Virus genome (UHGV): UHGV-0030812
Source: a virus
DNA: 11,091 nt
Strand: one strand, 5' to 3'
The position numbers and the translations under genes are program-made. Positions 1-11,091 of the stretch are shown here, one piece after another; position 1 is the stretch's first letter; every line of letters starts with the position of its first letter. Under the pieces are notes generated by a model. The model was not told the DNA's origin and did not search any database. It saw nothing but the letters and a program-made list of their open reading frames with translations.

Positions 1-87
1 GTCATTATTCTCTGCGGTATCCGTTTTGCCGCCGAGATCATCGTGCCGTTTATTCTCGCATTATTTATTGCTGTTATATATAACTAA
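1..87 (+). CDS. 3' end of a gene running in from the left edge (last 28 codons, ...VIILCGIRFAAEIIVPFILALFIAVIYN*); probably chromosomal flank encoding a membrane protein
   Basis: Frame 1 is open from the window edge to TAA at 85-87; the tail is strongly hydrophobic. Too short to appear in the ORF track. Identity not recognised. Confidence 0.3.
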   Translation, partial: VIILCGIRFAAEIIVPFILALFIAVIYN

Positions 88-151
88 TTTCACTTAACGC
101 ATTGATTTAATTAAATAATTTGCACTACAAAAAGTGCCATAAATCGCAAAA

Positions 152-174
152 TGACTACACCAGTGACTACACCG
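152..174 (+). repeat. Left copy of a 23-bp direct repeat TGACTACACCAGTGACTACACCG (internally a tandem of GTGACTACACC); candidate integrase arm-type site near the element boundary
   Basis: Identical 23-mer recurs at 10865-10887 in the same orientation; looser similarity (GAAACAA / GGAACAA motifs) continues about 50 bp to the right of both copies. Confidence 0.7.
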
Positions 175-282
175 TTCGGTGCACTGTATGAAACAACGTG
201 GAACAAATAGACACAAGAAATATACAGGCGGGTCATCTTTCCAGGGGGAAGCGCGCTAATTCATGAGGGGCGTTAATGTTGA

Positions 283-437
283 TATGGGGATCCCCATAAC
301 GGGGCTACCGGATTTTTTTTCCGGTTAACTGTTAATCAGGCTGGTGGGCTTTACCTGTTTTGTAGGAGTGGTCATTATGACCATTCAGACAATGACCTTA
401 ATCAGAACTTTTCGCTAAAAAATGACGTTGGTCACGT
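283..437. promoter_or_regulatory. Non-coding stretch packed with palindromes: TATGGGGATCCCCATA (283-298), CCGGA-T8-CCGG (311-327), GGTCATTATGACC (369-381), GACGTtggtcACGTC (423-437)
   Basis: Inverted repeats read directly from the sequence; no ORF of 60 aa or more on either strand. Function (operators, packaging or recombination accessory sites, RNA structure) is not assignable from sequence alone. Confidence 0.4.
416..437 (-). terminator. Weak candidate intrinsic terminator downstream of the 93-aa gene
   Basis: On the minus strand, hairpin GACGUgaccaACGUC (5-bp stem) is followed by AUUUUUUA. The stem is short, so this is tentative. Confidence 0.3.
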
Positions 438-490
438 CGTCCGGAAAGCACAAAATCCCGTCAATTTTTAATTAACGGTTAAACCGTCTT

Positions 491-540
491 TTGTCACGGC
501 GTGTCACTGGTTGTCACTCTCCGTCACGGTATGTCGCTAC
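491..540. repeat. Five tandem 10-bp repeats with a GTCAC core (ttGTCACggc / gtGTCACtgg / ttGTCACtct / ccGTCACggt / atGTCGCtac)
   Basis: Exact 10-bp periodicity (one helical turn) immediately 3' of the 93-aa gene; typical of a protein-binding array (iteron, arm-site or operator array). Confidence 0.6.
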
Positions 541-543
541 TCG

Positions 544-825
544 TTAACGCCGTAACCGCTCCGGCTTCTTCCAGTGGTACGTAATTTTCTCCGTTTCCCG
601 ATACAGTGCCACGCGGCGATTGTAGGCCAGCATTTCAAGAACGCGGATCCGTATGTTGCGCATATCCACATCATTAAGCTGGATACCATCACGGCGCATC
701 ACCTCAGCAACAACACGCGCATAATTTTCGGCTGTCACGCTGTCCGGCTGCGTGGCCTGTTCGTCAGTCTGCTGGCTGATTCCACCAGCACGGCGGATTA
801 ATCCCAGTATTTCGGCTTCTGTCAT
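544..825 (-). CDS. Hypothetical protein, 93 aa
   Basis: ORF with ATG at 825-823 and TAA at 546-544, preceded by a weak GGGTG Shine-Dalgarno. No family recognised. Lies just outside cos copy 1. Confidence 0.55.
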   Translation of the reverse strand: MTEAEILGLIRRAGGISQQTDEQATQPDSVTAENYARVVAEVMRRDGIQLNDVDMRNIRIRVLEMLAYNRRVALYRETEKITYHWKKPERLRR

Positions 826-857
826 TGTGCACCCATCGTTCTGATTGTCTGGTGTCG

Positions 858-925
858 TCGGGTCCTTCCTGGAATTATGGCCCGTTACGGGGCGGCGACC
901 TCGCGGTTTTTCGCTATTTATGAGC
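858..925 (+). other. Lambda-type cos site, copy 1 (cosQ-like GGGTCCTTCCTGG, cosN GTTACGGGGCGGCGACCTCGCGG, then TTTTTCGCTATTTATGA), plus-strand orientation
   Basis: Contains the 12-nt lambda cohesive-end sequence GGGCGGCGACCT (890-901) within the symmetric cosN. Roughly 85-90% identical to the reverse complement of 1621-1690. Lambda match is recalled from memory of the lambda genome ends. Confidence 0.7.
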
Positions 926-938
926 TTTTTTAGAGGGA

Positions 939-1088
939 GGTTGTTGTTTAATTGTTTGTCATATCCATTTGATAACTAAGTAAAAATAAAGAGCAATACA
1001 ACAACCTGATAGTGTTTTTTTGATGCTAAAAATAAAAAAATGCTAATTGAATCAAATAGTTTTAAAAAAATACGTGGTTGTTGTATTG
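939..1088. repeat. AT-rich segment carrying three copies of GGTTGTTGT(A/T)TTG (939-954 plus, 994-1006 minus, 1076-1088 plus); cosB-like terminase/accessory-protein binding region adjacent to cos copy 1
   Basis: Repeats read directly; A-tracts throughout (930-1110). The arrangement (repeats in both orientations next to cosN) resembles the R-site layout of lambda cosB. Confidence 0.45.
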
Positions 1089-1118
1089 CGTATTTGATGG
1101 CGTAACAGAAAGTGATTT

Positions 1119-1559
1119 TTAACTTTGCTGTTCTGTAACGACTGATTGTTCCATGCTGGCACGGCGAACGCTTACGGCATGACGCCACCCAGCCAGAAAG
1201 CCAGCCATTTTATTTCGTGCCTTGCTCACATCTTCCGGTGAATAGCCGTAAATCTGCAAACCTTCATCAAATCGATGTTCTGTTTCTTCACTGGAGTACT
1301 CGTCACGCTCAGATGAAAGCAGCCTGGCAAACATAATTTTTTCCAGCGCACTGGTTTCTACGTGATATCTGATGGTCTCAAGACGGCTTTTACCTGAAGA
1401 CCAAAGCAATGTATGCCCGATGTGATAACCGCCAGACTTTCCGCGATCCGCATTAAGATACGGCATCCCCTGTTTGGTCCATGCGCGAATAGTGGTTCTG
1501 TTAACCTTGAAATGTTCAGCTATTTCCTGCTGACTTACAAAACAAGCTTTATCAATCAT
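1119..1559 (-). CDS. Small terminase subunit homologue, lambda Nu1-like (N-terminal winged-HTH); possibly a packaging-redirection factor
   Basis: 146 aa; N-terminus VSQQEIAEHFKVNRTTIRAWTKQGMPYL parallels lambda Nu1 KKQLADIFGASIRTIQNWQEQGMPVL. ATG at 1559-1557 sits about 60 nt downstream of cos copy 2, as Nu1 does relative to cos in lambda. The C-terminal half is not obviously Nu1-like. Confidence 0.65.
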   Translation of the reverse strand: MIDKACFVSQQEIAEHFKVNRTTIRAWTKQGMPYLNADRGKSGGYHIGHTLLWSSGKSRLETIRYHVETSALEKIMFARLLSSERDEYSSEETEHRFDEGLQIYGYSPEDVSKARNKMAGFLAGWRHAVSVRRASMEQSVVTEQQS

Positions 1560-1620
1560 AATGTTACCTTAACTGCATGGTTAAATATTAATCAAGTGGT
1601 GGTGGTGTCATCTTCACGGA

Positions 1621-1690
1621 AAAACGTCATAAATAGCGAAAACCCGCGAGGTCGCCGCCCCGTAACGGGTCCATATGCCGGAAAGGACCC
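1621..1690 (-). other. Lambda-type cos site, copy 2 (minus-strand orientation), directly upstream of the Nu1-like gene
   Basis: Reverse complement reads GGGTCCTTTCCGG...GTTACGGGGCGGCGACCTCGCGGGTTTTCGCTATTTATGA, which matches the remembered lambda right-end/left-end junction almost base for base apart from about 10 nt between cosQ and cosN. Confidence 0.8.
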
Positions 1691-1692
1691 AT

Positions 1693-1716
1693 AAAAAAAA
1701 GCCGGATTTCTCCGGC
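1693..1716 (-). terminator. Rho-independent terminator ending the capsid operon
   Basis: On the minus strand, GCCGGAgaaaUCCGGC (perfect 6-bp GC-rich stem) is followed by U8; lies 7 nt downstream of the 137-aa gene stop. Confidence 0.8.
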
Positions 1717-1722
1717 CTTGTC

Positions 1723-2136
1723 TCAGATGGTTTTCAGTATGCGATCGATGTCGCCGTCATCGCCCTGGTTTCTGCCATCGTATGCCATGCCAGCTGATAC
1801 GGCTTGCGGGCTGTGCATGTCCATAAAGTTTTCAAAGGCTGCGGTAAGTTCCGGCGCAACCTTCGGACGTTCCTGCTCTATGGTCATGCTAAGGATGCTT
1901 TTAGCCGTACCAACATCGATACAAGGCACGTTTGCCATTGCACGTAACAGCGGCTGATAGTCGCCAGATTCATCAAGCGCCATAATCGCATCAGCGCGCG
2001 GCTTGTCCTGCTCTTCCAGTTTGTTGAGTTGATATACGGCCTCGTAGGTTGATAAACCTCTGTCAGCCATTGCCCGCGCTTCTGCTTTAAATTTACTCGC
2101 CAGCGGTAGCGCCATGATGCTTTCATTCGTTGCCAT
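1723..2136 (-). CDS. Hypothetical protein, 137 aa, last gene of the capsid operon
   Basis: ATG at 2136-2134 with AGGGGA Shine-Dalgarno, 12 bp after the gpD-like stop. No family recognised. Confidence 0.6.
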   Translation of the reverse strand: MATNESIMALPLASKFKAEARAMADRGLSTYEAVYQLNKLEEQDKPRADAIMALDESGDYQPLLRAMANVPCIDVGTAKSILSMTIEQERPKVAPELTAAFENFMDMHSPQAVSAGMAYDGRNQGDDGDIDRILKTI

Positions 2137-2148
2137 CGTTTCCCCTGC

Positions 2149-2484
2149 TTATCGCGCCAGCGGCTGAACGGATACGCCAGAACCCGCAAAGGCGGCGCAT
2201 TTTTTCGCGTCAGTGTCGGCGCTCTCAGGCCAGTTTACGGCGGCGATATTAAATATCCCCGTCTTGTAACACTGTGCTGATTTCTGCTTTGACGTGTCCA
2301 CGGGGTACGAGGTCAGATAAACAGCCTTGCCAGATTCCTGACCATCCCACGGCTTAAACTCGCCATTGTCCGCCAGCATCAGCGGGGTAAATTCCTGAAT
2401 AACGCCAGCATCAGCGGCAAAATGTACCAGCGTCGTGGCGACCTGCTGACTGCCTGCAAATAACTCAATGTATGGAGTGTCCAT
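2149..2484 (-). CDS. Head decoration protein, lambda gpD-like
   Basis: 111 aa; FTPLMLADNGEFKPWDG and YKTGIFNIAAVNWPESADTDAKKCAAFAGSGVSV align with lambda gpD MTPLMLD...VAWDG and [40 protein letters not shown] Shine-Dalgarno precedes the ATG. Confidence 0.8.
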   Translation of the reverse strand: MDTPYIELFAGSQQVATTLVHFAADAGVIQEFTPLMLADNGEFKPWDGQESGKAVYLTSYPVDTSKQKSAQCYKTGIFNIAAVNWPESADTDAKKCAAFAGSGVSVQPLAR

Positions 2485-2495
2485 AGAATCCCCCG

Positions 2496-3551
2496 TTAAC
2501 CAATTTTGACGGTAACAAATTTGCGAATATCTGCCGGTACCGGCTGCGGTGCACTGTGTGTCTGCACGTACTCAATCGCCGGATCTCCGTCCTCAATCCA
2601 GTTTTTCGGGTAGTACATGTTTTGCGTTGCCCCCGTTCTTACTGCGTCCTGATCCATAATCGCACCATAGGCCACCAGCCCTTTATTGTTGGTGTTGCCC
2701 AGGACAAGCAAATCAGGCTCAAGGAAATATTTTTCTGTGCCGTCGCTGTCGGCGTATTTGCCGGAATAGACGATAAGGGCAATATCGCCCAGATAGCCTT
2801 TAAAGCTCACCACTTCGCCCAAGTTTTTACATGCCAGCTCTGCGGCGGACTCTGAACCACGGGAAAGATCGTACAGCTCACGGAATTTTTTAAAGCTGCG
2901 TAACGTTCGCCATACCTCAGCGCCCATAATCATGACGTTGGCGGGGCAACCTGCCTGATCGGCGTATAGTTCGATATCATAGATTGGATCGTGGATTTCT
3001 TTGTCCTGCTCTGACCATTTTTTACCGTCGGCCTGCTCTATGATGTTTTTTTCCGGTATCTTCCAGTCGATTTCATAGCGCTCTATGCCTTCGCCCTCAA
3101 TGATGTTTTTTCCGGTCGTTACCGCATTTACCGCCAGCCATTCCACGCGCGCTTTTATGGCGTTTATCTGGCGGCGCATATTGCCAGTAATCAGGCGCAT
3201 ACGGCGATAGGTAGGGTCGTTAAGCTGTGCCGGATCTTCTCCAGCCATGCGCATGATGGTTTTCGTTGGATCGATTTCGTGCTTTGGCTTCATGTAGCCA
3301 GGTTTGATTGTGCTGGTTTCGTACCCTTTATCGCGCTGAACCTGGCTACCCACCATAGGCGAACAAAACGCCGACATGGTGACTTCTTCAATGTCCAGGG
3401 TATCCAGCATGATGTTTTGCGTGCTGAATGTCGCCACGTTCGGGAAAAACAGCGTGGTAAACAGCGGACTGAATTTAAATTCCGCAATATCCCCGCGATT
3501 CAGGTACGCAAAAAGCTGGTTAGTGTTAAGTGCCATTGCTTTTACTGTCAT
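2496..3551 (-). CDS. Major capsid protein, lambda gpE family
   Basis: 351 aa, colinear with lambda gpE (341 aa) along its whole length: FKFSPLFTTLFFP / FKFDPLFLRLFF, PGYMKPKHEIDP / PGYVKPKHEVNP, EDPAQLNDPTYRRMRLI / EDPQNLADPAYRRRRII, VLGNT, YPKNW. Start ATG overlaps the upstream stop as TAATG. Confidence 0.9.
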   Translation of the reverse strand: MTVKAMALNTNQLFAYLNRGDIAEFKFSPLFTTLFFPNVATFSTQNIMLDTLDIEEVTMSAFCSPMVGSQVQRDKGYETSTIKPGYMKPKHEIDPTKTIMRMAGEDPAQLNDPTYRRMRLITGNMRRQINAIKARVEWLAVNAVTTGKNIIEGEGIERYEIDWKIPEKNIIEQADGKKWSEQDKEIHDPIYDIELYADQAGCPANVMIMGAEVWRTLRSFKKFRELYDLSRGSESAAELACKNLGEVVSFKGYLGDIALIVYSGKYADSDGTEKYFLEPDLLVLGNTNNKGLVAYGAIMDQDAVRTGATQNMYYPKNWIEDGDPAIEYVQTHSAPQPVPADIRKFVTVKIG

Positions 3552-3757
3552 TATTCCCCCCCGTGAACCTGATTCATACCCAGCGCCGCGCGTAAATAGG
3601 CGCGTACCTGCCAGCCTGTTGACGGCTCAACCATCGCCAGCGGATCAAGTCCTGCCGCAATGCCTGCTTTTACGTTCTGCTGGTGGCGTTCCTTGAGCGC
3701 CTTCACGATGTCGGGGCTTATGTACACCGAAACACCGCCTTTTTTCTCTTCAGCCAT
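3551..3757 (-). CDS. Hypothetical protein, 68 aa, first gene of the capsid operon
   Basis: ATG at 3757-3755 with AAGAGGAA Shine-Dalgarno; its stop overlaps the capsid gene start, indicating translational coupling. No family recognised. Confidence 0.55.
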   Translation of the reverse strand: MAEEKKGGVSVYISPDIVKALKERHQQNVKAGIAAGLDPLAMVEPSTGWQVRAYLRAALGMNQVHGGE

Positions 3758-3785
3758 AGTAAGAAATTCCTCTTTGACTTAAAAA

Positions 3786-3841
3786 ATTATAACTGGATGT
3801 TCATCCAGTTCTGATTATAATCAGGATTGCATTTTGTGCAA
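3786..3841 (-). promoter_or_regulatory. Capsid-operon promoter with three contiguous palindromes: AACTGGATG-tt-CATCCAGTT (3791-3810), CTGATTATAATCAG (3811-3824), TTGCAttttgTGCAA (3827-3841)
   Basis: Minus-strand TATAAT (3791-3786) about 30 nt upstream of the orf68 ATG; the palindromes overlap and follow the -10/-35 region, consistent with a tightly regulated late promoter. Confidence 0.5.
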
Positions 3842-3921
3842 TGATATTGAGTTGTGTTGCAAATTATGAAATGATGATCCCGCTCATGTGTGTCAGTGCA
3901 CCAAAAAGCCTCATATGCAAA

Positions 3922-3959
3922 AGCCCGATAAGCCACCTCTGACCTTATCGGGCTTTTTT
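3922..3959 (+). terminator. Strong hairpin plus T-tract, best read as a plus-strand intrinsic terminator (possibly bidirectional)
   Basis: AGCCCGATAAG-(11 nt loop)-CTTATCGGGCT is a perfect 11-bp stem followed by TTTTTT on the plus strand. No annotated plus-strand gene lies upstream. Confidence 0.55.
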
Positions 3960-4134
3960 ATCTGCCTGCAAAGATGTCGAACGAAAATTAACCACAACCA
4001 TCATCTTTTTTGCATCAAAACAATTAAAAACAATAAATTACGCTCATGATGATGATGACGATAAAATCACAAAAATGCGCTTTTTTCCGCGCCTCCCGCC
4101 CCGTGTTCAGGCCCACCCCGCCAGGAGGACCCGT

Positions 4135-4156
4135 AAAAAAGCCGGATTGCTCCAGC
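4135..4156 (-). terminator. Rho-independent terminator after the SSB-like gene
   Basis: On the minus strand, GCUGGAgcaaUCCGGC (6-bp stem with one G-U pair) is followed by U6. Sequence is related to the 1693-1716 terminator. Confidence 0.55.
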
Positions 4157-4172
4157 TTCTGTCACTCGTCGC

Positions 4173-4595
4173 TTAAAACGGTATGTTATCCCCGTACGGA
4201 TCATCATTCCCCGCCTGTTGTTTTGCCCTGTTCAGCGCGTCAGTAGCCTGGCCCTGTTGACCTTTTTTGCCGCCCAGTCGCGCCGTTCGCGCACTGATTA
4301 CACTGTCTGCGATAACCTGCCAGCCCTGCCGCGTTTCTCCGTTCTGCCCAGTCCACTGGCTGATCTGCATGTTACCCGCCACGCTCAGGAGTTCACCCTT
4401 GCGGTGCCTTTCCAGTGCTTCGGCCTGTCTGCCAAATGCCAGGACGGATAACCACATCGTCGCCGTTCCGTCATCTGCCTGGCTGCACGGAAGGGGGACC
4501 GCCATACGCGCCAGCGTCATCGGTGTGCCCTTGCTGGTCTGTTTTACCTGCGGGTCGTCCACCAGCCGCCCGTAAGCTGCTATCTGTGCTGTCAT
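4173..4595 (-). CDS. ssb: Single-stranded DNA-binding protein (SSB) homologue
   Basis: 140 aa; the OB-fold core WLSVLAFGRQAEALERHRKGELLSVAGNMQISQWTGQNGETRQGWQVIAD parallels E. coli SSB [51 protein letters not shown]. The acidic C-terminal tip DDPYGDNIPF resembles the SSB DDDIPF tail. Confidence 0.8.
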   Translation of the reverse strand: MTAQIAAYGRLVDDPQVKQTSKGTPMTLARMAVPLPCSQADDGTATMWLSVLAFGRQAEALERHRKGELLSVAGNMQISQWTGQNGETRQGWQVIADSVISARTARLGGKKGQQGQATDALNRAKQQAGNDDPYGDNIPF

Positions 4596-4870
4596 TATTC
4601 CACCTCTCCGGTTTTAACGTTGATGGTTGTTACCTGTTCCGCTTCGGCAATCTCCCGCTCTGTCAGCGTGGCAAAATTTGCCGCCGTCGTGGTCATGAAT
4701 GCGCTTATCAGTTCGGGATGTGCTTTCGCGTATCCTTCCCCCGCGTGGCGGTCTATCGTTCTGATTGCCACCTTTAAAGCGTGCTCTGTCATGTCTAACG
4801 CGCGATATTTCGGTTCTGTTCTGTCTCTGCGTTTTTTGAGTGATTTATTAAATTTCCCTGAAGTGTGCAT
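4595..4870 (-). CDS. Hypothetical protein, 91 aa, translationally coupled to ssb
   Basis: ATG at 4870-4868; stop overlaps the ssb ATG as TAATG. No family recognised. Confidence 0.55.
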   Translation of the reverse strand: MHTSGKFNKSLKKRRDRTEPKYRALDMTEHALKVAIRTIDRHAGEGYAKAHPELISAFMTTTAANFATLTEREIAEAEQVTTINVKTGEVE

Positions 4871-4919
4871 ATTTATTTTTACCCCCTCGTTTAAAAAGTT
4901 TTGAGTTGTGCCTCCCCTT

Positions 4920-5145
4920 GTCTACCTTATCTACCTTAGTGGCCCTCATACCAGTAATGGCGCGGCTTTCAGCGGGGTAGAGTGCTTTTATCCACTATCT
5001 ACCCCGTGTCTACCTCCCTGTCTGATTCAGGTAAAATCAGGTAGAGAGGGTAGATAGTGGGTAGACAGTAAAAAAAGGCTATCTACCTAACTTAATGCAC
5101 TGAATTAAATGTATTTTTCTTTACTCAGGTAGACAGGGTAGACAG
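4920..5145. repeat. Iteron cluster, candidate replication origin: at least 10 copies of GGTAGA(C/G/T)AG / (C/T)TCTACC in both orientations
   Basis: Copies at 4920-4926, 4929-4935, 4976-4982, 4997-5004, 5008-5014, 5040-5046, 5049-5057, 5059-5068, 5081-5087, 5128-5136 and 5137-5145. Located immediately 3' of the primase/helicase gene, the usual position of a satellite ori. Confidence 0.6.
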
Positions 5146-5158
5146 CAATTACAAAAAA

Positions 5159-6913
5159 TTATAAAAACGCGTCGCACTCGTCTGTTGTTATTGCGTTAGT
5201 CTGCGTTACTCCCTTAACTTTCCGCGTAATATATTCATGTCCGTAAACTTTCGCGGCTGGCTTCATAGCCTTGCCAAAGTCATTTACGTTTAGCGGTTTG
5301 CTCCTGCCTGCGTACGCCATAAACGCCAGATAGACGCGGTAAAGACTGTTTCTGGTCGTGTACTTCACTGAATCGCCACCGCCGCCCATCATCAGGCCGC
5401 GTGCTTCCTCCAGAAAATTCAGGAACTGGCAAAACTCAATAACCGGATCCGTCTGTTGCTTTATTGCCAGAGCTTCATCACCGTCACGCTGTTCCAGTAG
5501 TAAAGCCCTCGCCTTCTCAGGGTCGGTAAAGTTCGCCAGCAATCGGCGGATAATGACAGGGATTTCAGCCGCGATCTTTTCCGGTAGCTCCCTGTCTTTT
5601 TCGGCCTCACTGACGATATTGTCGAAACGGAAAATCACGCGACGACGTGCCACACCTCCGGCCCGTTCGGTGAATATCATCGGGTTATTGTTGGTCGCCA
5701 GCACCACCGCCCTGATTACAGCCGTGAAACGCTTTTCGTATTTCGGGTTAATTTCCACGGGGTCACCGCCCGTGATTTTCTTGATGCCCGTTCCTTCGCC
5801 TGTATATTTCGGCTGGTCAGCCAGGACGATAAGACGACTCCCGACAACCTGCGCACGTCCACCAGCATCATCAAGCGATGTCATTTCAGCGCTTACCGTG
5901 TTCTGTTTCCCTGCCAGAAGGCTGGCTATGTGTGTGAATGTACTTTTACCGCTCCCGCCGTCTCCGGTGGCCTCAATAAACATCTGCCAGTCGTACCGGT
6001 TCGCCATAATCATGTACAGCGCGGCACATATACGCATCATCTTGCGCGGGTCTTTTCCGGCTGCGTGCTCAAGCCATTTATGAAAGTTTGGCGCGTTATC
6101 GCGGATGTTCTCCCCTGGTGCTGGTGGCGTGTACTCAATGCCGTTGTGCGTGGTGATCCAGTTCTCCGGCGTGTGCGGGGAAAATTCCCCCGTTTTCAGG
6201 TCAAGCGCACCATTGGCGAACGGCAACAAATCGCCGGACGGCTCGCCCATTGGTTCGGCAATAACTTTTAACGCTTCCACGGCGTTATTGATTACGCGCT
6301 TGCTGAAAGTGGCCCTGTGCTCTGAATAGATCGCCACCATTTCGCGGCTAAGTTCCATTGTGCTGACCGGACACCATACCCCGCCGCGCCATACGTGAAC
6401 GATTTCACTTTCAGGATGTACGCAAACGCCATCAAAGCGATCGGCAAGCAGCTGCGCGCGCTCACTGTCCGCCATCTGCGAAAGTTGCGCCTTTTGCTTT
6501 ACCGGAAGCTCAATGACCAGACCATCAGAAAGATTCTGGCGCTCACGGGCCAGATATTCGCGCCAGTTCTCCACCTTCTGACCGTGCATACCATCAGGGT
6601 AAAAATTTGCATCCTGTACGCCTGCCGCCGCCAGCTTCTGACCAATCGCCTTTATCATTACTGGCGCAAGATATCCGGCCCTGAATATGCGCACGGATTT
6701 TCTGCCTTCCGGCACAATTTGCAGCTTATCCAGTTCGGATAACTGCTGCTCCCCAAGCCACACAGGAGGCTCATTATCTCCGGCCATACGCGCGTCATGT
6801 TCCTGCCATTGTTTTGCGTGTGACCAGGCATCACTACCCGCAAAAATAATGACTTCTGTTTCTTTGTGTTTTATGCCGCGTGACTGCTGTTTTACGTTCG
6901 GTGCCAGTTTCAT
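5159..6913 (-). CDS. Replication initiator: primase fused to a P4-alpha / D5-type SF3 helicase domain (Pri-Rep)
   Basis: 584 aa; Walker A GDGGSGKST and downstream LIVLAD-type Walker B in the C-terminal half. Size and layout typical of P4-family/PICI primase-helicases. ATG overlaps the upstream stop (ATGA). Confidence 0.85.
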   Translation of the reverse strand: MKLAPNVKQQSRGIKHKETEVIIFAGSDAWSHAKQWQEHDARMAGDNEPPVWLGEQQLSELDKLQIVPEGRKSVRIFRAGYLAPVMIKAIGQKLAAAGVQDANFYPDGMHGQKVENWREYLARERQNLSDGLVIELPVKQKAQLSQMADSERAQLLADRFDGVCVHPESEIVHVWRGGVWCPVSTMELSREMVAIYSEHRATFSKRVINNAVEALKVIAEPMGEPSGDLLPFANGALDLKTGEFSPHTPENWITTHNGIEYTPPAPGENIRDNAPNFHKWLEHAAGKDPRKMMRICAALYMIMANRYDWQMFIEATGDGGSGKSTFTHIASLLAGKQNTVSAEMTSLDDAGGRAQVVGSRLIVLADQPKYTGEGTGIKKITGGDPVEINPKYEKRFTAVIRAVVLATNNNPMIFTERAGGVARRRVIFRFDNIVSEAEKDRELPEKIAAEIPVIIRRLLANFTDPEKARALLLEQRDGDEALAIKQQTDPVIEFCQFLNFLEEARGLMMGGGGDSVKYTTRNSLYRVYLAFMAYAGRSKPLNVNDFGKAMKPAAKVYGHEYITRKVKGVTQTNAITTDECDAFL

Positions 6914-7209
6914 TTTTTACCCCTGAATCCGTTAATCATGGTTTTCAGCTTCTGGATGTTTGCCCGTGCCCTGGCGTTGCTGGTGGGCACGTTATGCGGC
7001 GCGGTCTGTACCAGAGAAAAATCACGCCGGAACTGATAAACAGGCATCACGCAATCATATTCGTAACCTTCACGGCGGTAGGTTACGCGCCGTTCTTCCA
7101 CGCCCTTAATCATTACCGTGCCGCCGTACTGGTCGCGGTAAATATCGCCGCGCGTAAATTTAGGGTGAGTGTTGCCACTGGCAGTTAAGCCAGAATATTT
7201 AAGTTTCAT
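6910..7209 (-). CDS. Hypothetical protein, 99 aa, translationally coupled to the primase gene
   Basis: ATG at 7209-7207 with GGAGAA Shine-Dalgarno; stop overlaps the primase ATG. No family recognised. Confidence 0.55.
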   Translation of the reverse strand: MKLKYSGLTASGNTHPKFTRGDIYRDQYGGTVMIKGVEERRVTYRREGYEYDCVMPVYQFRRDFSLVQTAPHNVPTSNARARANIQKLKTMINGFRGKK

Positions 7210-7279
7210 TATTTTTATTCTCCGGTGTGCTGTTCTTTATATCTGTCGTGCAATAGATCTATTTCTTGCAGTTCCATTA

Positions 7280-7417
7280 TTACAGGCTCAATTTTTGTTT
7301 GTCGCGTTCATTGTCGCCAAGTGTTTCAAGCCATATGCGTAATATTTCCATCATGCTTTCACTGTGAGAAAGTGCAAGAAATGCGCGGTCTATTGTTTCA
7401 AGGTAAATATCACGCAT
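7280..7417 (-). CDS. Small ORF, 45 aa (MRDIYLETIDRAFLALSHSESMMEILRIWLETLGDNERDKQKLSL), absent from the ORF track
   Basis: ATG at 7417-7415 lies 1 nt after the orf73 stop, with GGGGA 5 nt upstream; TAA at 7282-7280. Hand-translated; fills an otherwise empty 200-bp gap in a tightly packed operon. Confidence 0.35.
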   Translation of the reverse strand: MRDIYLETIDRAFLALSHSESMMEILRIWLETLGDNERDKQKLSL

Positions 7418-7418
7418 A

Positions 7419-7640
7419 TTAATCCCCGTCCGTCGTTTTTCTTAAAATAACCTCTGTCACGAAATCAGCATAATCGGCGACGATATTCAGTACATCAAGC
7501 CCCGTTGATTTATATTCTCTCGTGGAAAGTAAGAAAAAAGCCGCTCTAATAAGCTCTGGCATTGACGAAAGCGCATCAGCCGCATCATCAGGAACGCCGG
7601 AAAATTCCTGTTTCAGGGAATTAAAACGATCATCACGCAT
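7419..7640 (-). CDS. Hypothetical protein, 73 aa (or the C-terminal part of a frameshifted longer protein)
   Basis: ATG at 7640-7638 directly after the G9 tract, which could act as its Shine-Dalgarno. No family recognised. Confidence 0.5.
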   Translation of the reverse strand: MRDDRFNSLKQEFSGVPDDAADALSSMPELIRAAFFLLSTREYKSTGLDVLNIVADYADFVTEVILRKTTDGD

Positions 7641-7873
7641 AACCCCCCCCCATTTTCACAATCAGCAATCAGGATGGCTTTAGCCTCATTCAGCGCCATA
7701 TCCGCACTAAGTTGCATAACCGCCAGCGAATGAGGAACGAAAGCCCCTGCATATTCTGTTTCACTGGTGGCGTGCTTATGCGCCATGTCAGCAATAACAG
7801 AAATATCAATAAGCGCGTGCATCAGCGTAGTGAGCGCGGCGGCTGCTGCGTCCGGTGTGGTTTTATTGCACAT
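7613..7873 (-). CDS. Hypothetical protein, 86 aa from the ATG with the AGGAGG Shine-Dalgarno
   Basis: AGGAGG sits 7 nt upstream of the ATG at 7873-7871, so the ORF-track start at 7915 is probably too long. The ATG overlaps the end of the Icd-like gene. Ends ENGGG LCVMIVLIP* right after the G9 tract. Confidence 0.5.
   Translation of the reverse strand: MCNKTTPDAAAAALTTLMHALIDISVIADMAHKHATSETEYAGAFVPHSLAVMQLSADMALNEAKAILIADCENGGGLCVMIVLIP
7643..7651. repeat. Homopolymer C9 (G9 on the coding strand) at the orf86/orf73 junction
   Basis: Read directly; the two ORFs overlap across it in different frames. Confidence 0.9.
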
Positions 7874-8063
7874 GGCACACCTCCTGACGAATACGGGCGG
7901 CGAATACAGCAACACAACCGGACGGGCAACGGCTACGCGCTTCGCGTTCCGTCCAGGCGGTTACGTGGATGATTTGAGATTCTCCGGCACTTAGTGCCAG
8001 AAAACGCCACACAAAGGCAGTTTGTGTGTGCGCCAGACGTGGGGTATGCTGTGTTCCAGCCAT
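7863..8063 (-). CDS. Small protein (66 aa) resembling the Icd-like family of P4-type elements; first gene of the leftward replication operon
   Basis: ATG at 8063-8061 with AGGAG 7 nt upstream. Sequence MAGTQHTPRLAHTQTAFVWRFLALS...TEREARSRCP...FAARIRQE matches my recollection of Icd-like proteins (unverified). The ORF track shows it only as the tail of an implausible 378-aa read-through ORF. Confidence 0.5.
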   Translation of the reverse strand: MAGTQHTPRLAHTQTAFVWRFLALSAGESQIIHVTAWTEREARSRCPSGCVAVFAARIRQEVCHVQ

Positions 8064-8151
8064 AATCGTTACTCCTGTTAACGGTTTGGTTAGACGCCCC
8101 GCTACTGCCGCAAACAGTTCGGGGCGTTGTCGTTTACATCCTCTTACTGAG

Positions 8152-8228
8152 GTGTGATTTAAATTAAATTCAACTGAATCACAGGTCAAGTGTTTTTTGT
8201 GATTCTTTTTTGTGTATACTGAATCACA
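8152..8228. promoter_or_regulatory. Divergent promoter/operator region with two inverted-repeat sites: TGTGATT-N15-TGAATCACA (8153-8183) and TGTGATTC-N14-TGAATCACA (8198-8228)
   Basis: Repeats read directly. They lie between the leftward operon (start 8063) and the rightward RHH gene (start 8251). The second site overlaps a TATACT -10 candidate (8215-8220). Confidence 0.5.
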
Positions 8229-8250
8229 TCTTTTGTTTAGGAGAATGCAC

Positions 8251-8556
8251 ATGGCAAAAAACACTATCAACGACAAATCAAAACAGATTTCAATTCGTAT
8301 CCCACATGATGCTTTTGATGGCATGGAATCCGTAAAACTGGACGGCGAAAGCAACGCCGGATTCATAGTAACCGCCATGCGCGGGGAGATCGCCCGCCGC
8401 CAGGCAGAAGGAAGCAGTGAAAATCCTCTGATTTCTTCTCTCGATGCATTGGCGCAAGTGGAAAAAATTGGTATTAAAGCTACGGAAGAACTCGGGCAAC
8501 TTATCGCCATCGCTCGTGAAGAACTACAGCGCCGCAAGGCCAAAGAATCAGAATAA
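8251..8556 (+). CDS. Ribbon-helix-helix (CopG/Arc-type) DNA-binding protein; candidate repressor of the element
   Basis: 101 aa from the ATG at 8251, with GGAGA 7 nt upstream (the ORF-track GTG start at 8212 is probably too long). N-terminal KQISIRIPHDAFDGMESV...AGFIVTAMRGEIARR fits a beta-strand/helix/helix RHH fold. Divergent from the replication operon. Confidence 0.6.
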   Translation: MAKNTINDKSKQISIRIPHDAFDGMESVKLDGESNAGFIVTAMRGEIARRQAEGSSENPLISSLDALAQVEKIGIKATEELGQLIAIAREELQRRKAKESE

Positions 8557-8598
8557 TCACTATCAGCGCCGTGGTGTGAGGTATTACGGCGCATTGCT

Positions 8599-8787
8599 AT
8601 GCAGGACAACACAATGACCGATAAAGAATTGACCAAAACATTATCACCGGCACGGAAAAGACGGCGCAGAAAGATAGAGCATGAATCAGAAAGATTCGCG
8701 CCATGTGCTTTTGCCCTTGAGCAATTCCTTAAAGAATACAGGGAAAAGCGCTCATTGCAGGTATGGCAACGAACTGAACCAGACTGA
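8599..8787 (+). CDS. Hypothetical small basic protein, 62 aa (KRRRRK motif)
   Basis: ORF downstream of the RHH gene, ending before the 8883-8910 terminator. No convincing Shine-Dalgarno, so weakly supported. Confidence 0.3.
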   Translation: MQDNTMTDKELTKTLSPARKRRRRKIEHESERFAPCAFALEQFLKEYREKRSLQVWQRTEPD

Positions 8788-8882
8788 TTGCATTGCCCAC
8801 CAGCCTGATAGCGGCTATCATCCCCGTGCTTATGTTTGGGATCACACACACAAACGGCGCAGCGGGTTATCTGTTCAGAAAG

Positions 8883-8910
8883 GCGGCTCCATTTCGGGGC
8901 CGCTTTTTTT
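8883..8910 (+). terminator. Rho-independent terminator for the rightward RHH transcript
   Basis: GCGGCTCC-atttc-GGGGCCGC (8-bp stem, one G-U pair) followed by T7. Confidence 0.7.
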
Positions 8911-9056
8911 ATGCCTGAAAAACCCCAATTTTGTGGTTTTCCAGTCTCACCAGGGCGAACGAATCCCCGCCCACGTTCTGGCGTATATTCAATCTTCATG
9001 GTTATAGCTCTGTGTTCAGATGATTGATGTGTGGCGGCTGCGTGCCGCCAGCGTGA

Positions 9057-9245
9057 TTAATGAACTGCCTTGCAGCTATCCTTCCAGGCCAGAACCTCGG
9101 ATAAAGACCAGCCAACGGAACGACCGCTAAGTTTACGACGTGATGGGAATTGTCCGGCCTTTTCCAGGCGGTAGCGGCATGAGCGGCTAAGGCCTGTTAG
9201 CTTTTCGCATTCTTTTTCACGTATAAACCGATCAGTGCTTAACAC
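9057..9245 (-). CDS. alpA: AlpA-family transcriptional regulator (phage/satellite excisionase-like HTH)
   Basis: 62 aa, GTG start with AAGGGGG Shine-Dalgarno. LTGLSRSCRYRLEKAGQFPSRRKLSGRSVGWSLSEVLAW is the canonical AlpA pattern. Immediately upstream of int on the same strand. Confidence 0.85.
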   Translation of the reverse strand: MLSTDRFIREKECEKLTGLSRSCRYRLEKAGQFPSRRKLSGRSVGWSLSEVLAWKDSCKAVH

Positions 9246-9609
9246 TATTGCCCCCTTTCGTTTCTTAAAGAGTCATCAGGTGTCTTATTGTGTCGTATTG
9301 TTCCCGCTAGAGTGATGAATGGCAAATATTGAGGATGTATGATTTACAGAAAATGAAACAGTAAGAATAAAATCTTTTAAATTCATGTTAATACAAAGGC
9401 ATAAAATATTGTTTCATGCCTTTTTTCTCGCTATTTAAAGAGTGATTCGCTAGTGTATAAAAAACCAGTAACACATTAAAAATCAGCTACTTATAAATCC
9501 GTACACTTTTTCGCCTCTTGTTCGTAGTTGTTCCGCATTGTTGCTCATTGTTGCACGTTGTATCTGTTCGCATATCCAGTATGCGCATACTGAAAAAACA
9601 CGAAAAAAA

Positions 9610-10839
9610 TTATTTTCTTCTGGCTACTGGTAGCGTGGTTACGTTTTCATGTGTTCCCGCCAGTATCCCTAACCGCTCCGTCCACATATCCAGCGCATTG
9701 CGTTTAGCATCCAGATAACGGGAATGATTATAAACTCGCTGCATTCCTGGCATCTGGTGGCCTGTAAGCTGCTCCACGACATGCGGATCAACGCCTAAAT
9801 CGTTCAGCATGGTTGTAAAGGTGCGCCGGATGTCATGCAGTGACCAGTGAGGATGATTAAGCCTCCTGTGCGCTAATCTTCCATACTGCGATACGCTGGC
9901 CTCCTGTTTCACTTCCCCCAGCAATAAGCCCGTGTGCCTGTTCTGCTCCACCAGCTGCGTGACGAACGGCAGGATCGCTTCCGGTATGGGCCGGAATATT
10001 GCGACCTTCGTTTTGCTGTGCTCCTTCGGAACGGTCCATAGCATTTCCGTAAAATCCCACTCCCCGATCTCCGATAACCTCAGTTCTACCGTTCTGGCTC
10101 CGAAGACAATCAGGAGGCGGATTAACGCGACGTAGTAAGGGGAGAATATTTTTTTGTCCAGTGCCTGCAATAATTCGCCAAGTTCTTTGTTACTTAAGAC
10201 ACGTTCGCTTATATCCGGTTTTTTCCCAACGTCCGCCACGTTCAGATCGTCCAGAACGTTGCTGATTGCATAGCGCCGCCTACGGCAGAACTTAAGCGCC
10301 TGTTTGCACGCCTGTAGCACGAATCCGGCAGTAACAGGCGTTCGCTTTGCCACCTGGTCAAAACAGGCCAGCCAGTGCCGTAGCTCGCATTTATCCAGCG
10401 GCATAGCACCAATCTGCTGTATTACGTGATTATTAAGTCGCCTTTTCAGGGCGATATAATCCACGCGGTTTTCCTTTACGTAATACTCAAGCCAGTAGGT
10501 GAGCGCATCGCCAACCGTTACGGGCTTTAACGCTTCCTGTACGGTGTAATTCATCTCATGACGTGGATTTTTCCCCTCAGCCAGCCATGTGCGACACTGT
10601 GCGGCTTTTTCCCTGGCTGCTTTCAGGCTCAGATCAGGATAACTTCCCAGCTTAATGCGTTCGGGTCGTGTCTCCCTTCCCGTTCCGGCCCTGTATGTGA
10701 AATACCAGGTCAATTTCCCTGATGTTAAATATTTCACGCTCAGGTTTCCGCCATCACTATAAAACGTGTTTTTCTCCGCTGGCTTACCATGAAGTTTCCT
10801 TAGCAAGGTATCGCTCAGTTTGTTCATTGCTCTGCTCAC
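9610..10839 (-). CDS. int: Tyrosine recombinase, P4-type integrase
   Basis: 409 aa. Catalytic signature: R in ARTVELR, HDIRRTF (H-x-x-R), GHQMPGMQRVYNHSRY (H and Y nucleophile); N-terminal arm-binding-type domain. Start may be GTG at 10839 (AGAGGGGG upstream) or ATG at 10827. Confidence 0.9.
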   Translation of the reverse strand: MSRAMNKLSDTLLRKLHGKPAEKNTFYSDGGNLSVKYLTSGKLTWYFTYRAGTGRETRPERIKLGSYPDLSLKAAREKAAQCRTWLAEGKNPRHEMNYTVQEALKPVTVGDALTYWLEYYVKENRVDYIALKRRLNNHVIQQIGAMPLDKCELRHWLACFDQVAKRTPVTAGFVLQACKQALKFCRRRRYAISNVLDDLNVADVGKKPDISERVLSNKELGELLQALDKKIFSPYYVALIRLLIVFGARTVELRLSEIGEWDFTEMLWTVPKEHSKTKVAIFRPIPEAILPFVTQLVEQNRHTGLLLGEVKQEASVSQYGRLAHRRLNHPHWSLHDIRRTFTTMLNDLGVDPHVVEQLTGHQMPGMQRVYNHSRYLDAKRNALDMWTERLGILAGTHENVTTLPVARRK

Positions 10840-10864
10840 GTTTTACCCCCTCTTTACGAAAAAG

Positions 10865-10887
10865 TGACTACACCAGTGACTACACCG
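10865..10887 (+). repeat. Right copy of the 23-bp direct repeat TGACTACACCAGTGACTACACCG, about 25 bp upstream of the int start
   Basis: Identical to 152-174; followed by GAAACAAG / GGAACAAG motifs as at the left copy. Confidence 0.7.
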
Positions 10888-11091
10888 ATCGTTGCACAAA
10901 GGGCTACAACGTGAAACAAGCTGGAACAAGGAAAATCACAAATCTGTTGATAATCAAAAACATAATGCACAGCCTGAAACATTATGAAACAGCAAAAAAC
11001 ACTAAATGATAAAATGCTGTTATTCTTAACCCGCTGGTGCAACACATGGTCCGCTGGCGAGTGCCGCGTGTACTGGCGGTGTCGATTTTGA

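Follow-up and report, generated by a model that had tools for sequence, protein, structure and literature searches.

The 11,091-nt stretch of UHGV virus genome UHGV-0030812 considered here (the window, taken as a whole) raises a simple question: what are the two identical 23-bp direct repeats near its two ends, at 152-174 and 10865-10887, and do they mark the limits of the element between them? The element is a phage-inducible chromosomal island (PICI) of the EcCI042/EcCICFT073 type, located in the Escherichia coli gene tqsA, and an earlier note made from the sequence had proposed that the repeats delimit it, either as the attachment (att) direct repeats themselves or as arm-type binding sites of its integrase (Int) on either side of the attachment core. 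The island boundaries must be corrected, as they lie at a 9-bp core, TGCTGTTAT, within tqsA and not at the 23-bp repeats; the repeats are internal, and they are probably Int arm-type sites of a lambda/P4-type attP.

The 23-mer, TGACTACACCAGTGACTACACCG, occurs exactly twice in the 11-kb window, both times on the + strand, and among 200 dinucleotide-preserving shuffles there was no match to it even with three mismatches permitted. Each 23-mer is made of two TGACTACACC decamers in tandem with a period of 12 bp, and all four exact copies of the decamer in the window fall within the two 23-mers; the arm sequence expected to carry the candidate Int sites is also written TGACTACACCAGTGACTACACC. Ungapped similarity extends beyond the repeats themselves (148-223 against 10861-10936; 76 nt, 76% identity), and the partly similar GAAACAA-rich tract that had been noticed after each copy resolves into about three units with an AACAA/ACAA core and a period of 10 bp (189-218 and 10902-10931). 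The right copy does adjoin int, from whose GTG start it is separated by 25 nt.

152-174, + strand: left (P') arm doubled motif, 2 x TGACTACACC, candidate Int arm-type sites with a 12-bp period
10865-10887, + strand: right (P, int-proximal) arm doubled motif, 2 x TGACTACACC, candidate Int arm-type sites

Where the island ends was mapped by aligning the intact tqsA of E. coli K-12, which represents the empty site, to both ends of the window, a comparison that the earlier note had suggested and that locates the junctions exactly. In the three-way alignment, host sequence continues through TGCTGTTAT at 69-77 and restarts with TGCTGTTAT at 11015-11023; this 9-mer, present twice in the window, is the sole block common to attL, attR and attB, and the island spans 78-11023, or 10,946 bp. 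The 23-mer is not found in K-12 tqsA, and since host sequence runs to position 77 and is met again from 11015, with both 23-mers internal, the 23-mers do not form the ends of the element. The left copy is 74 nt inward of its core edge and the right copy 127 nt, or 79 and 132 nt from the core centre, and it is TGCTGTTAT, not the 23-mer, that has the properties of an att core. The prediction that the true core might lie in 90-150 and/or 10,890-11,091 was thus right for the right-hand copy and wrong for the left-hand one.

1-68, + strand: 5' part of host tqsA (autoinducer-2 (AI-2) exporter), left flank; from the RefSeq annotation of strain 300709 and K-12 and the empty-site alignment
69-77, + strand: attL core TGCTGTTAT, containing the crossover; identity block of attL, attR and attB, and the reverse complement of the published EcCI042 core ATAACAGCA
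11015-11023, + strand: attR core TGCTGTTAT; from the empty-site alignment and a circular contig
11024-11091, + strand: 3' part of host tqsA, right flank; from the annotation of strain 300709 and the empty-site alignment

The same arrangement is found in the genome of E. coli strain 300709, to which the window is near-identical apart from a few substitutions, a 30-bp deletion at 7291 and a 1-nt indel, and in which the flanks are annotated as two tqsA halves. What had been taken for a flanking-gene tail at 1-87 is instead the 5' part of tqsA, which the insertion interrupts after roughly 46 codons; its reading frame then runs through three codons of the island to a stop (..FIAVIYN*). tqsA is not restored by the island, and the 3' fragment (11015-11091) is preceded by in-frame TGA and TAA stops; carriers are presumably tqsA-null or produce only an N-terminally truncated protein. 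That no tRNA is visible at the right edge, as had been remarked, follows from the target being inside protein-coding tqsA; a tRNA or tmRNA target was ruled out by tRNA/tmRNA and Rfam searches of the window, all of them negative. The junctions also agree with the literature, as Table S1 of Fillol-Salom et al. (2018, ISME J, PMC6092414) lists two PICIs in tqsA, EcCI042 and EcCIK1516, with the att core ATAACAGCA, the reverse complement of TGCTGTTAT. EcCI042 has identical cores and repeats, and its att, int and alpA regions are 98-99% identical to those of the window.

For the excision product, whose recovery had been suggested as a further check, a metagenome-derived viral contig from IMG/VR (L011; 11,098 nt) provides a stand-in, as its 119-nt terminal overlap yields a circle of 10,979 bp. 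The circle runs from window position 69 to 11023 and then back into 69, closing on the core with both 23-mers inside, and the P-core-P' junction predicted from the window matches it at 437 of 437 nt. The two doubled motifs of the circular form lie on opposite sides of the core and are co-oriented, the int-side one at 132 nt from the core centre and the other at 79 nt: repeats outside the crossover core and in the attP arms, as arm sites are. An equivalent P-core-P' junction, from a related island with another core, is present in a second contig (L087; IMGVR_UViG_3300019373_000108). There it occupies the tail, and the head of the contig (1-330) contains an attL junction with clpS-side host flank, a pair to be explained either by two insertions in tandem or by an assembly in which integrated and excised forms were merged. 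For satellites more generally, long direct repeats near the ends are not to be read as att cores.

The arrangement of the arms is conserved among relatives whose Int is 92% to 67% identical to that of the window and which are inserted at phoQ/roxA, inside yifB, at clpS/cspD and at thiM/rcnR, the phoQ/roxA relative having an Int identical to that of EcCICFT073. Their cores all differ, in agreement with the published ones, so that there are five counting that of tqsA. Every relative has a doubled motif with a 12-bp period next to int, on its upstream side, and a second one at the opposite end. Across the tqsA, phoQ/roxA, yifB, clpS/cspD and thiM/rcnR elements the motif is separated from the core by about 125-128 nt on one side and 67-74 nt on the other, and the separating sequence itself diverges. 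Both arms of the most divergent relative have CTGACCACACA twice, and therefore the two copies have changed together.

The layout can be followed well beyond this group. Helper-embedded PICIs (HE-PICIs), with Int 40-45% identical to that of the window, have the motif TGTATTGC, and a PICI in the tRNA-Pro gene of E. coli ATCC 25922, with Int 25% identical, has GTTATACG at 132 and 60 nt from a core at the tRNA end (L090; doubled motifs 2252-2275 and 13509-13532, core at about 2105-2119 and 13593-13607). The record of phage P4 (NC_001609; L213, 3915-4174), with Int 24% identical, annotates tandem pairs of a 12-bp 'attP arm sequence repeat' at 3942-3965 and 4151-4174, with the core at 4078-4097 between the pairs and the int start at 3926. 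The doubled-motif geometry is probably ancestral to integrases with an N-domain of the Arm-DNA-bind_3 type, and the arrangement, published as unique to HE-PICIs, looks general across P4-type integrases, including those of P4, classical PICIs and capsid-forming PICIs.

In Table S1 of PMC6092414, entries of two kinds under 'att site core' also resemble arm-type doubled motifs and not crossover cores. The EcCIDI14 entry, CGGTGTAGTTAATGGTGTAGTTAATT, is the reverse complement of the EcCI042/EcCICFT073-type doubled motif (doubled motifs in L007 are at 16252-16277 and 5636-5661), and the repeats of the yejM PICIs, TTTGTAGTTATACG..., have their core in the 3' end of tRNA-Pro, at distances of 132 and 60 nt. 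An exact search of the viral contigs for the published yejM 'att core', TTTGTAGTTATACGTTTGTAGTTATACGG, returned no match, the ATCC 25922 sequence being slightly different. From its sequence the NmCIFF6 entry, TTTGGTAACACGTTTAGTAACAC, looks like a candidate for the same case. At least two published PICI 'att core' entries are thus apparently arm motifs.

Which protein recognizes the doubled motif? Int has a separate N-terminal domain of the expected kind: residues 8-95 match Pfam Arm-DNA-bind_3 (E 1.4e-18) and align to the solved arm-binding domains of the HPI integrase (3JTZ/3RMP) and the HAI7 integrase (3JU0). We compared the motif at about 90 loci with the residues in the predicted beta1-turn-beta2 of this domain, placed in the beta-sheet by the alignment to 3JTZ and by knowledge of the fold. 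An Int of the SVKYLTSGKL type pairs with AGTGACTACACC, the S[VI]RHST[SN]GLL type with ATTAACTACACC (or ATTGAC...), and the EIKHSKGGKL...FRYRTG type with AACTGACCACAC; the counterpart of TGACTACACC for an EIKHSKGGK-type Int is also written TGACCACACA, and GACCACACA is used to name a type of Int N-domain by its arm sequence. Altogether there are five pairs of motif and Int N-domain, in which both arms always match and which are independent of the core and of the type of AlpA, the island's excisionase-like regulator. The SVKYLTSGKL and S[VI]RHST[SN]GLL types both occur with the AlpA type of the window, the S[VI]RHST[SN]GLL and EIKHSKGGKL types both occur with another AlpA type, and HE-PICIs keep one motif although their AlpA recognition helix varies. 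The motif changes with the Int beta-sheet and not with AlpA, and therefore the repeats are most likely Int arm-type sites.

AlpA, for its part, has candidate sites elsewhere. Arrays of AACAA units occur next to both doubled motifs and upstream of alpA, where 10 matches are found against 1.5 expected by chance, and the form of the unit tracks AlpA, being TGRAACAA where the AlpA is of the window type and CGAACAA where it is of the other. Recombination directionality factors (RDFs) such as 186 Apl and RdfS typically have direct repeats spaced by one helical turn, both within att and at a promoter, and the arrays are probably sites for AlpA as RDF or excisionase.

189-218, + strand: left arm array of three AACAA/ACAA-core units with a 10-bp period (TGAAACAACG TGGAACAAAT AGACACAAGA), candidate AlpA (RDF) sites
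10902-10931, + strand: right arm array of three AACAA/ACAA-core units with a 10-bp period
9279-9305, - strand: three AACAA/ACAA-core units over the promoter-like region just upstream of alpA
9518-9571, - strand: about six AACAA-core units with a 10-bp period, directly after the int stop and upstream of alpA

Could the repeats nevertheless be something other than Int sites? That they are the att direct repeats, and hence crossover sites and the true element ends, has practically no probability left. No exact direct repeat near the two ends of the window is longer, and a published table enters equivalent doubled motifs of some PICIs under 'att site core', but host sequence breaks off at 77 and begins again at 11015, the empty tqsA lacks the 23-mer, the circular contig closes at TGCTGTTAT and keeps both copies inside, and relatives retain the motif across five different cores. 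It is also very improbable that they are a functionless remnant of a neutral duplication or a chance similarity; none of the shuffles reproduced the 23-mer, the motif and its distances from the core persist as Int identity falls from 92% to 24%, P4 included, while the surrounding arm sequence diverges, and the two copies change in concert. A more serious alternative, although still an unlikely one, is that the doubled TGACTACACC is bound by AlpA or another island regulator, as an int operator or an RDF site, and that the arm domain of Int sits on the AACAA units. These units outnumber TGACTACACC (3+2+3 in attP) and are present on both arms, and lambda-type arm sites are often numerous and found on both arms; moreover, one TGACTACACC pair is placed as an operator would be, with the int start on one side of it and any upstream promoter on the other. 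It is also the case that AlpA or an unknown protein has been kept as an option for the homologous HE-PICI motif (PMC10111431). Yet the motif is constant while the AlpA recognition helix changes, both between EcCICFT073-type and clpS/cspD-type elements and among HE-PICIs, and it changes with the Int beta-sheet while AlpA is constant, between clpS/cspD-type and thiM/rcnR-type elements. The AACAA units, which have a 10-bp period and are present both in att and at the promoter of the regulator itself, conform to how known RDFs such as 186 Apl and RdfS behave, and the four half-sites agree with four Int protomers.

Assignment of the repeats to Int is accordingly the reading that we favor, and of the possibilities raised in the earlier note it is the one that fits all of the positional and comparative evidence, but a number of observations weigh against it. 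Both arms and the 5' end of int lie within about 400 bp in the circular form, so that linkage confounds the co-variation; the loci are phylogenetically related; the clearly distinct motif/Int pairs number only five; and the differences between types A and B are confined to flanking or spacer bases of the unit. The arrays upstream of alpA, when compared across relatives, are clear in the group with window-type AlpA and not in the second group, which weakens the assignment of AACAA to AlpA. The only perfect consensus site for integration host factor (IHF) is on the P' side (95-107), with none perfect in the P arm, and a sigma-70 consensus scan of the P arm, from core to int, gave no int promoter, manual inspection being unconvincing as well. 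Finally, Mageeney et al. (2023, PMC10111431) leave the choice of binder between Int arm domains, AlpA or another protein.

If Int does bind the repeats, it is possible to picture how they would be used, although the roles given here to Int, AlpA and IHF, and the autoregulation of int, are ones that we infer. In an intasome of the lambda/P4 type, the N-domains of four Int protomers would dock on the four half-sites, two on each arm, while the C-terminal domains would hold the core sites of attP and attB. A bend at the IHF-consensus site at 95-107, between arm and core, would let one Int bridge both. Integration would then send one arm pair to each island end, and it is because the pairs are separated in this way that the repeats would be seen 'near both ends'. 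Int bound at the int-proximal pair, 25 nt from the int start, probably also limits int expression, as the position of this pair between any upstream promoter and the int start leads one to expect that binding would damp it. AlpA, if it occupies the AACAA arrays, may bias the complex to excision and so tie excision to the regulation of alpA.

95-107, - strand: IHF-consensus site AATCAATGCGTTA, a candidate for DNA bending, located between core and left arm repeat; sole perfect WATCAANNNNTTR match in the 11-kb window
10998-11014, + strand: block AACACTAAATGATAAAA adjoining the core; candidate core-type Int site, from the attP alignment of five elements
10974-10993, + strand: two more GAAACA units with a 10-bp period, near the core

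An equivalent IHF match is retained in the EcCICFT073-type attP although the spacer bases differ, and a block AACACTAAnTGATAAA abuts each core on its int side in the aligned relatives, though the cores are all different. A terminator-like hairpin at 122-137 (- strand), GCACTTTTTGTAGTGC followed by an A/T-rich tail, is also present at the distal end of the operon that runs leftward, with the IHF-like site on one side of it and the left repeat on the other; it was considered as a part of the att architecture and set aside, not being kept in more distant attPs.

The comparison with EcCICFT073 bears on how such islands change targets. The Int proteins of the two islands are 92% identical and their arms are the same, yet their cores are unrelated (TGCTGTTAT in tqsA and AAATATGTCC between phoQ and roxA), and a 30-bp segment around the crossover is replaced (10998-11023 plus 78-107 in the window, 14137-14163 plus 2977-3006 in L003). 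The Int proteins differ at 34 amino acids, about half of them in the first 57 residues, that is, in the arm domain and not in the core-binding or catalytic domains. It is tempting to speculate, although we think it somewhat doubtful, that the arm cassette (doubled 12-bp sites at about 79 and 132 nt, plus AACAA arrays) is an ancestral, portable P4-type scaffold on which retargeting occurs by a swap of the roughly 30-bp core. If target choice depends mainly on attP overlap and core bases plus a few Int residues, this would be a natural and easily reprogrammable integrase system. The pairs of half-site and protein residue are candidates for use in engineering these integrases. The att site of EcCI042-type islands was already published and the arm architecture was known from P4 and HE-PICIs; what is new is the doubled motif of the EcCI042/EcCICFT073 PICI clade as an instance of it and the co-variation evidence favoring Int over AlpA. 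The conspicuous repeats would thus be part of an integrase assembly scaffold, and the practical value of recognizing this is modest.

The island has the size and gene set of a PICI, with 10,946 bp where about 10-15 kb is expected, one direction of transcription, int, alpA and a replication module, and without a full structural and lysis set, and its core in tqsA is that of EcCI042 and EcCIK1516. All of the open reading frames (ORFs) with a family assignment are on the minus strand, and their products are Int, AlpA, an Icd-like protein, a DUF4222 protein, a D5_N/DUF5906 primase, a single-stranded DNA-binding protein (SSB), lambda-type major capsid protein E and decoration protein D, and a small helix-turn-helix (HTH)/TerS-like protein.

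9610-10839, - strand: int, tyrosine integrase with an N-terminal arm-type DNA-binding domain (Pfam Arm-DNA-bind_3 and Phage_integrase); GTG start with an upstream Shine-Dalgarno sequence, GAGGGGG
9057-9245, - strand: alpA, AlpA-family excisionase/transcription factor (Pfam Phage_AlpA, E 1.9e-17; PHROG 'excisionase and transcriptional regulator')

Packaging signals of the helper type are represented by two exact lambda cosN 12-mers (GGGCGGCGACCT), at 890-901 (+ strand) and 1649-1660 (- strand). These oppositely oriented sites are contained in a 71-nt inverted repeat, 86% complementary (860-930 and 1620-1690), that flanks the HTH/TerS-like ORF at 1119-1559. The published cos1 of EcCICFT073 includes the same cosN 12-mer, and a second site has been named cos2. 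For induction, packaging and transfer by a helper phage the evidence is indirect only, namely the circular form seen in the metagenome-derived viral contig.

At least 80% of the window is present in 63 of 5,426 complete E. coli genomes, and relatives of int are present in 1,241 of them; a scan of genome contigs with the Int protein returned one locus only, a Shigella copy. Relative to both strain 300709 and the circular contig, the 30 bp missing from the window at 7291 lie inside small ORFs, and the 1-nt indel that distinguishes the window from strain 300709 is within 7291-11091. At 7863-8999 (- strand) the window has an intact ORF of 378 amino acids with an Icd-like/repressor-like domain at its end, where RefSeq annotates a short Icd-like gene and a pseudogene in strain 300709. 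The relatives share an int-alpA-icd-DUF4222-primase-SSB backbone and differ in morphogenesis cargo: the window has lambda E/D capsid genes, a complete set of HK97-type genes, including terminase, portal and protease, makes the elements inside yifB (L006) and at thiM/rcnR (L009) resemble capsid-forming PICIs, and a ClpP-protease/capsid fusion is encoded by the element at clpS/cspD (L008). Exchange of the att/int module has evidently been independent of exchange of the packaging module.

Among the closest known systems is EcCI042 (with EcCIK1516; PMC6092414), which is like the window in its insertion gene, its 9-bp core and its two doubled motifs. The gene order of EcCI042 and EcCICFT073 is also that of the window, int-alpA-...-DUF4222-replication-SSB-lambda-type capsid E/decoration D, together with cos sites, but the replication module differs, being a D5_N/DUF5906 primase in the window and a RepA-type helicase in EcCI042, and a PerC gene was not identified in the window. 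EcCICFT073, at the ycfD-phoQ site, encodes a capsid and a decoration protein, carries cos sites, and has the arm motif and distances of the window; integration by its int-attP has been shown experimentally. The arm repeats are not described in PMC6092414, where the equivalent doubled motifs are given as 'att core' for other PICIs.

The HE-PICI motif, published as tgTGTATTGCantgTGTATTGCa (PMC10111431), is doubled, lies 81±2 and 132±2 bp from the attP centre, against 79 and 132 nt here, and was called unique to HE-PICIs. It shares with that of the window the tandem pair, the 12-bp period and the two co-oriented copies, one of them just upstream of int, but the window does not belong to the HE-PICI subclade: its motif is TGACTACACC and not TGTATTGC, and its target is a chromosomal gene and not a late gene of a helper prophage. 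P4 is similar in its tandem 12-bp pairs, co-oriented and flanking the core, in the Arm-DNA-bind_3-type N-domain of its Int, and in having the 5' end of int 15 nt from one pair. It differs in its ATGCCCCC-like unit, in gaps of 112 and 53 nt, in extra single copies and in its distant Int. The P4 core is 20 bp long, with a tRNA-Leu gene as target.

Lambda attP, with its arm sites P1, P2 and P'1-3 and its IHF and Xis sites, departs from the arrangement seen here, as its arm sites are 2+3 and of mixed orientation, while the candidate sites of the window are symmetric, directly repeated half-sites in a 2+2 pattern. The lambda-type systems, ICEMlSymR7A and 186 nevertheless resemble the window in having arm sites apart from the core, on both arms and at about 60-150 bp. 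They also have a bending site between arm and core, RDF direct repeats one helical turn apart, beside an Int arm site and at a promoter, and an Int that is autoregulated through sites overlapping att, features for which the window has candidate or proposed counterparts. ICEMlSymR7A offers a precedent for the last of these, as its P4-type IntS has arm sites and attP-bound IntS shuts off intS (PMC11963761).

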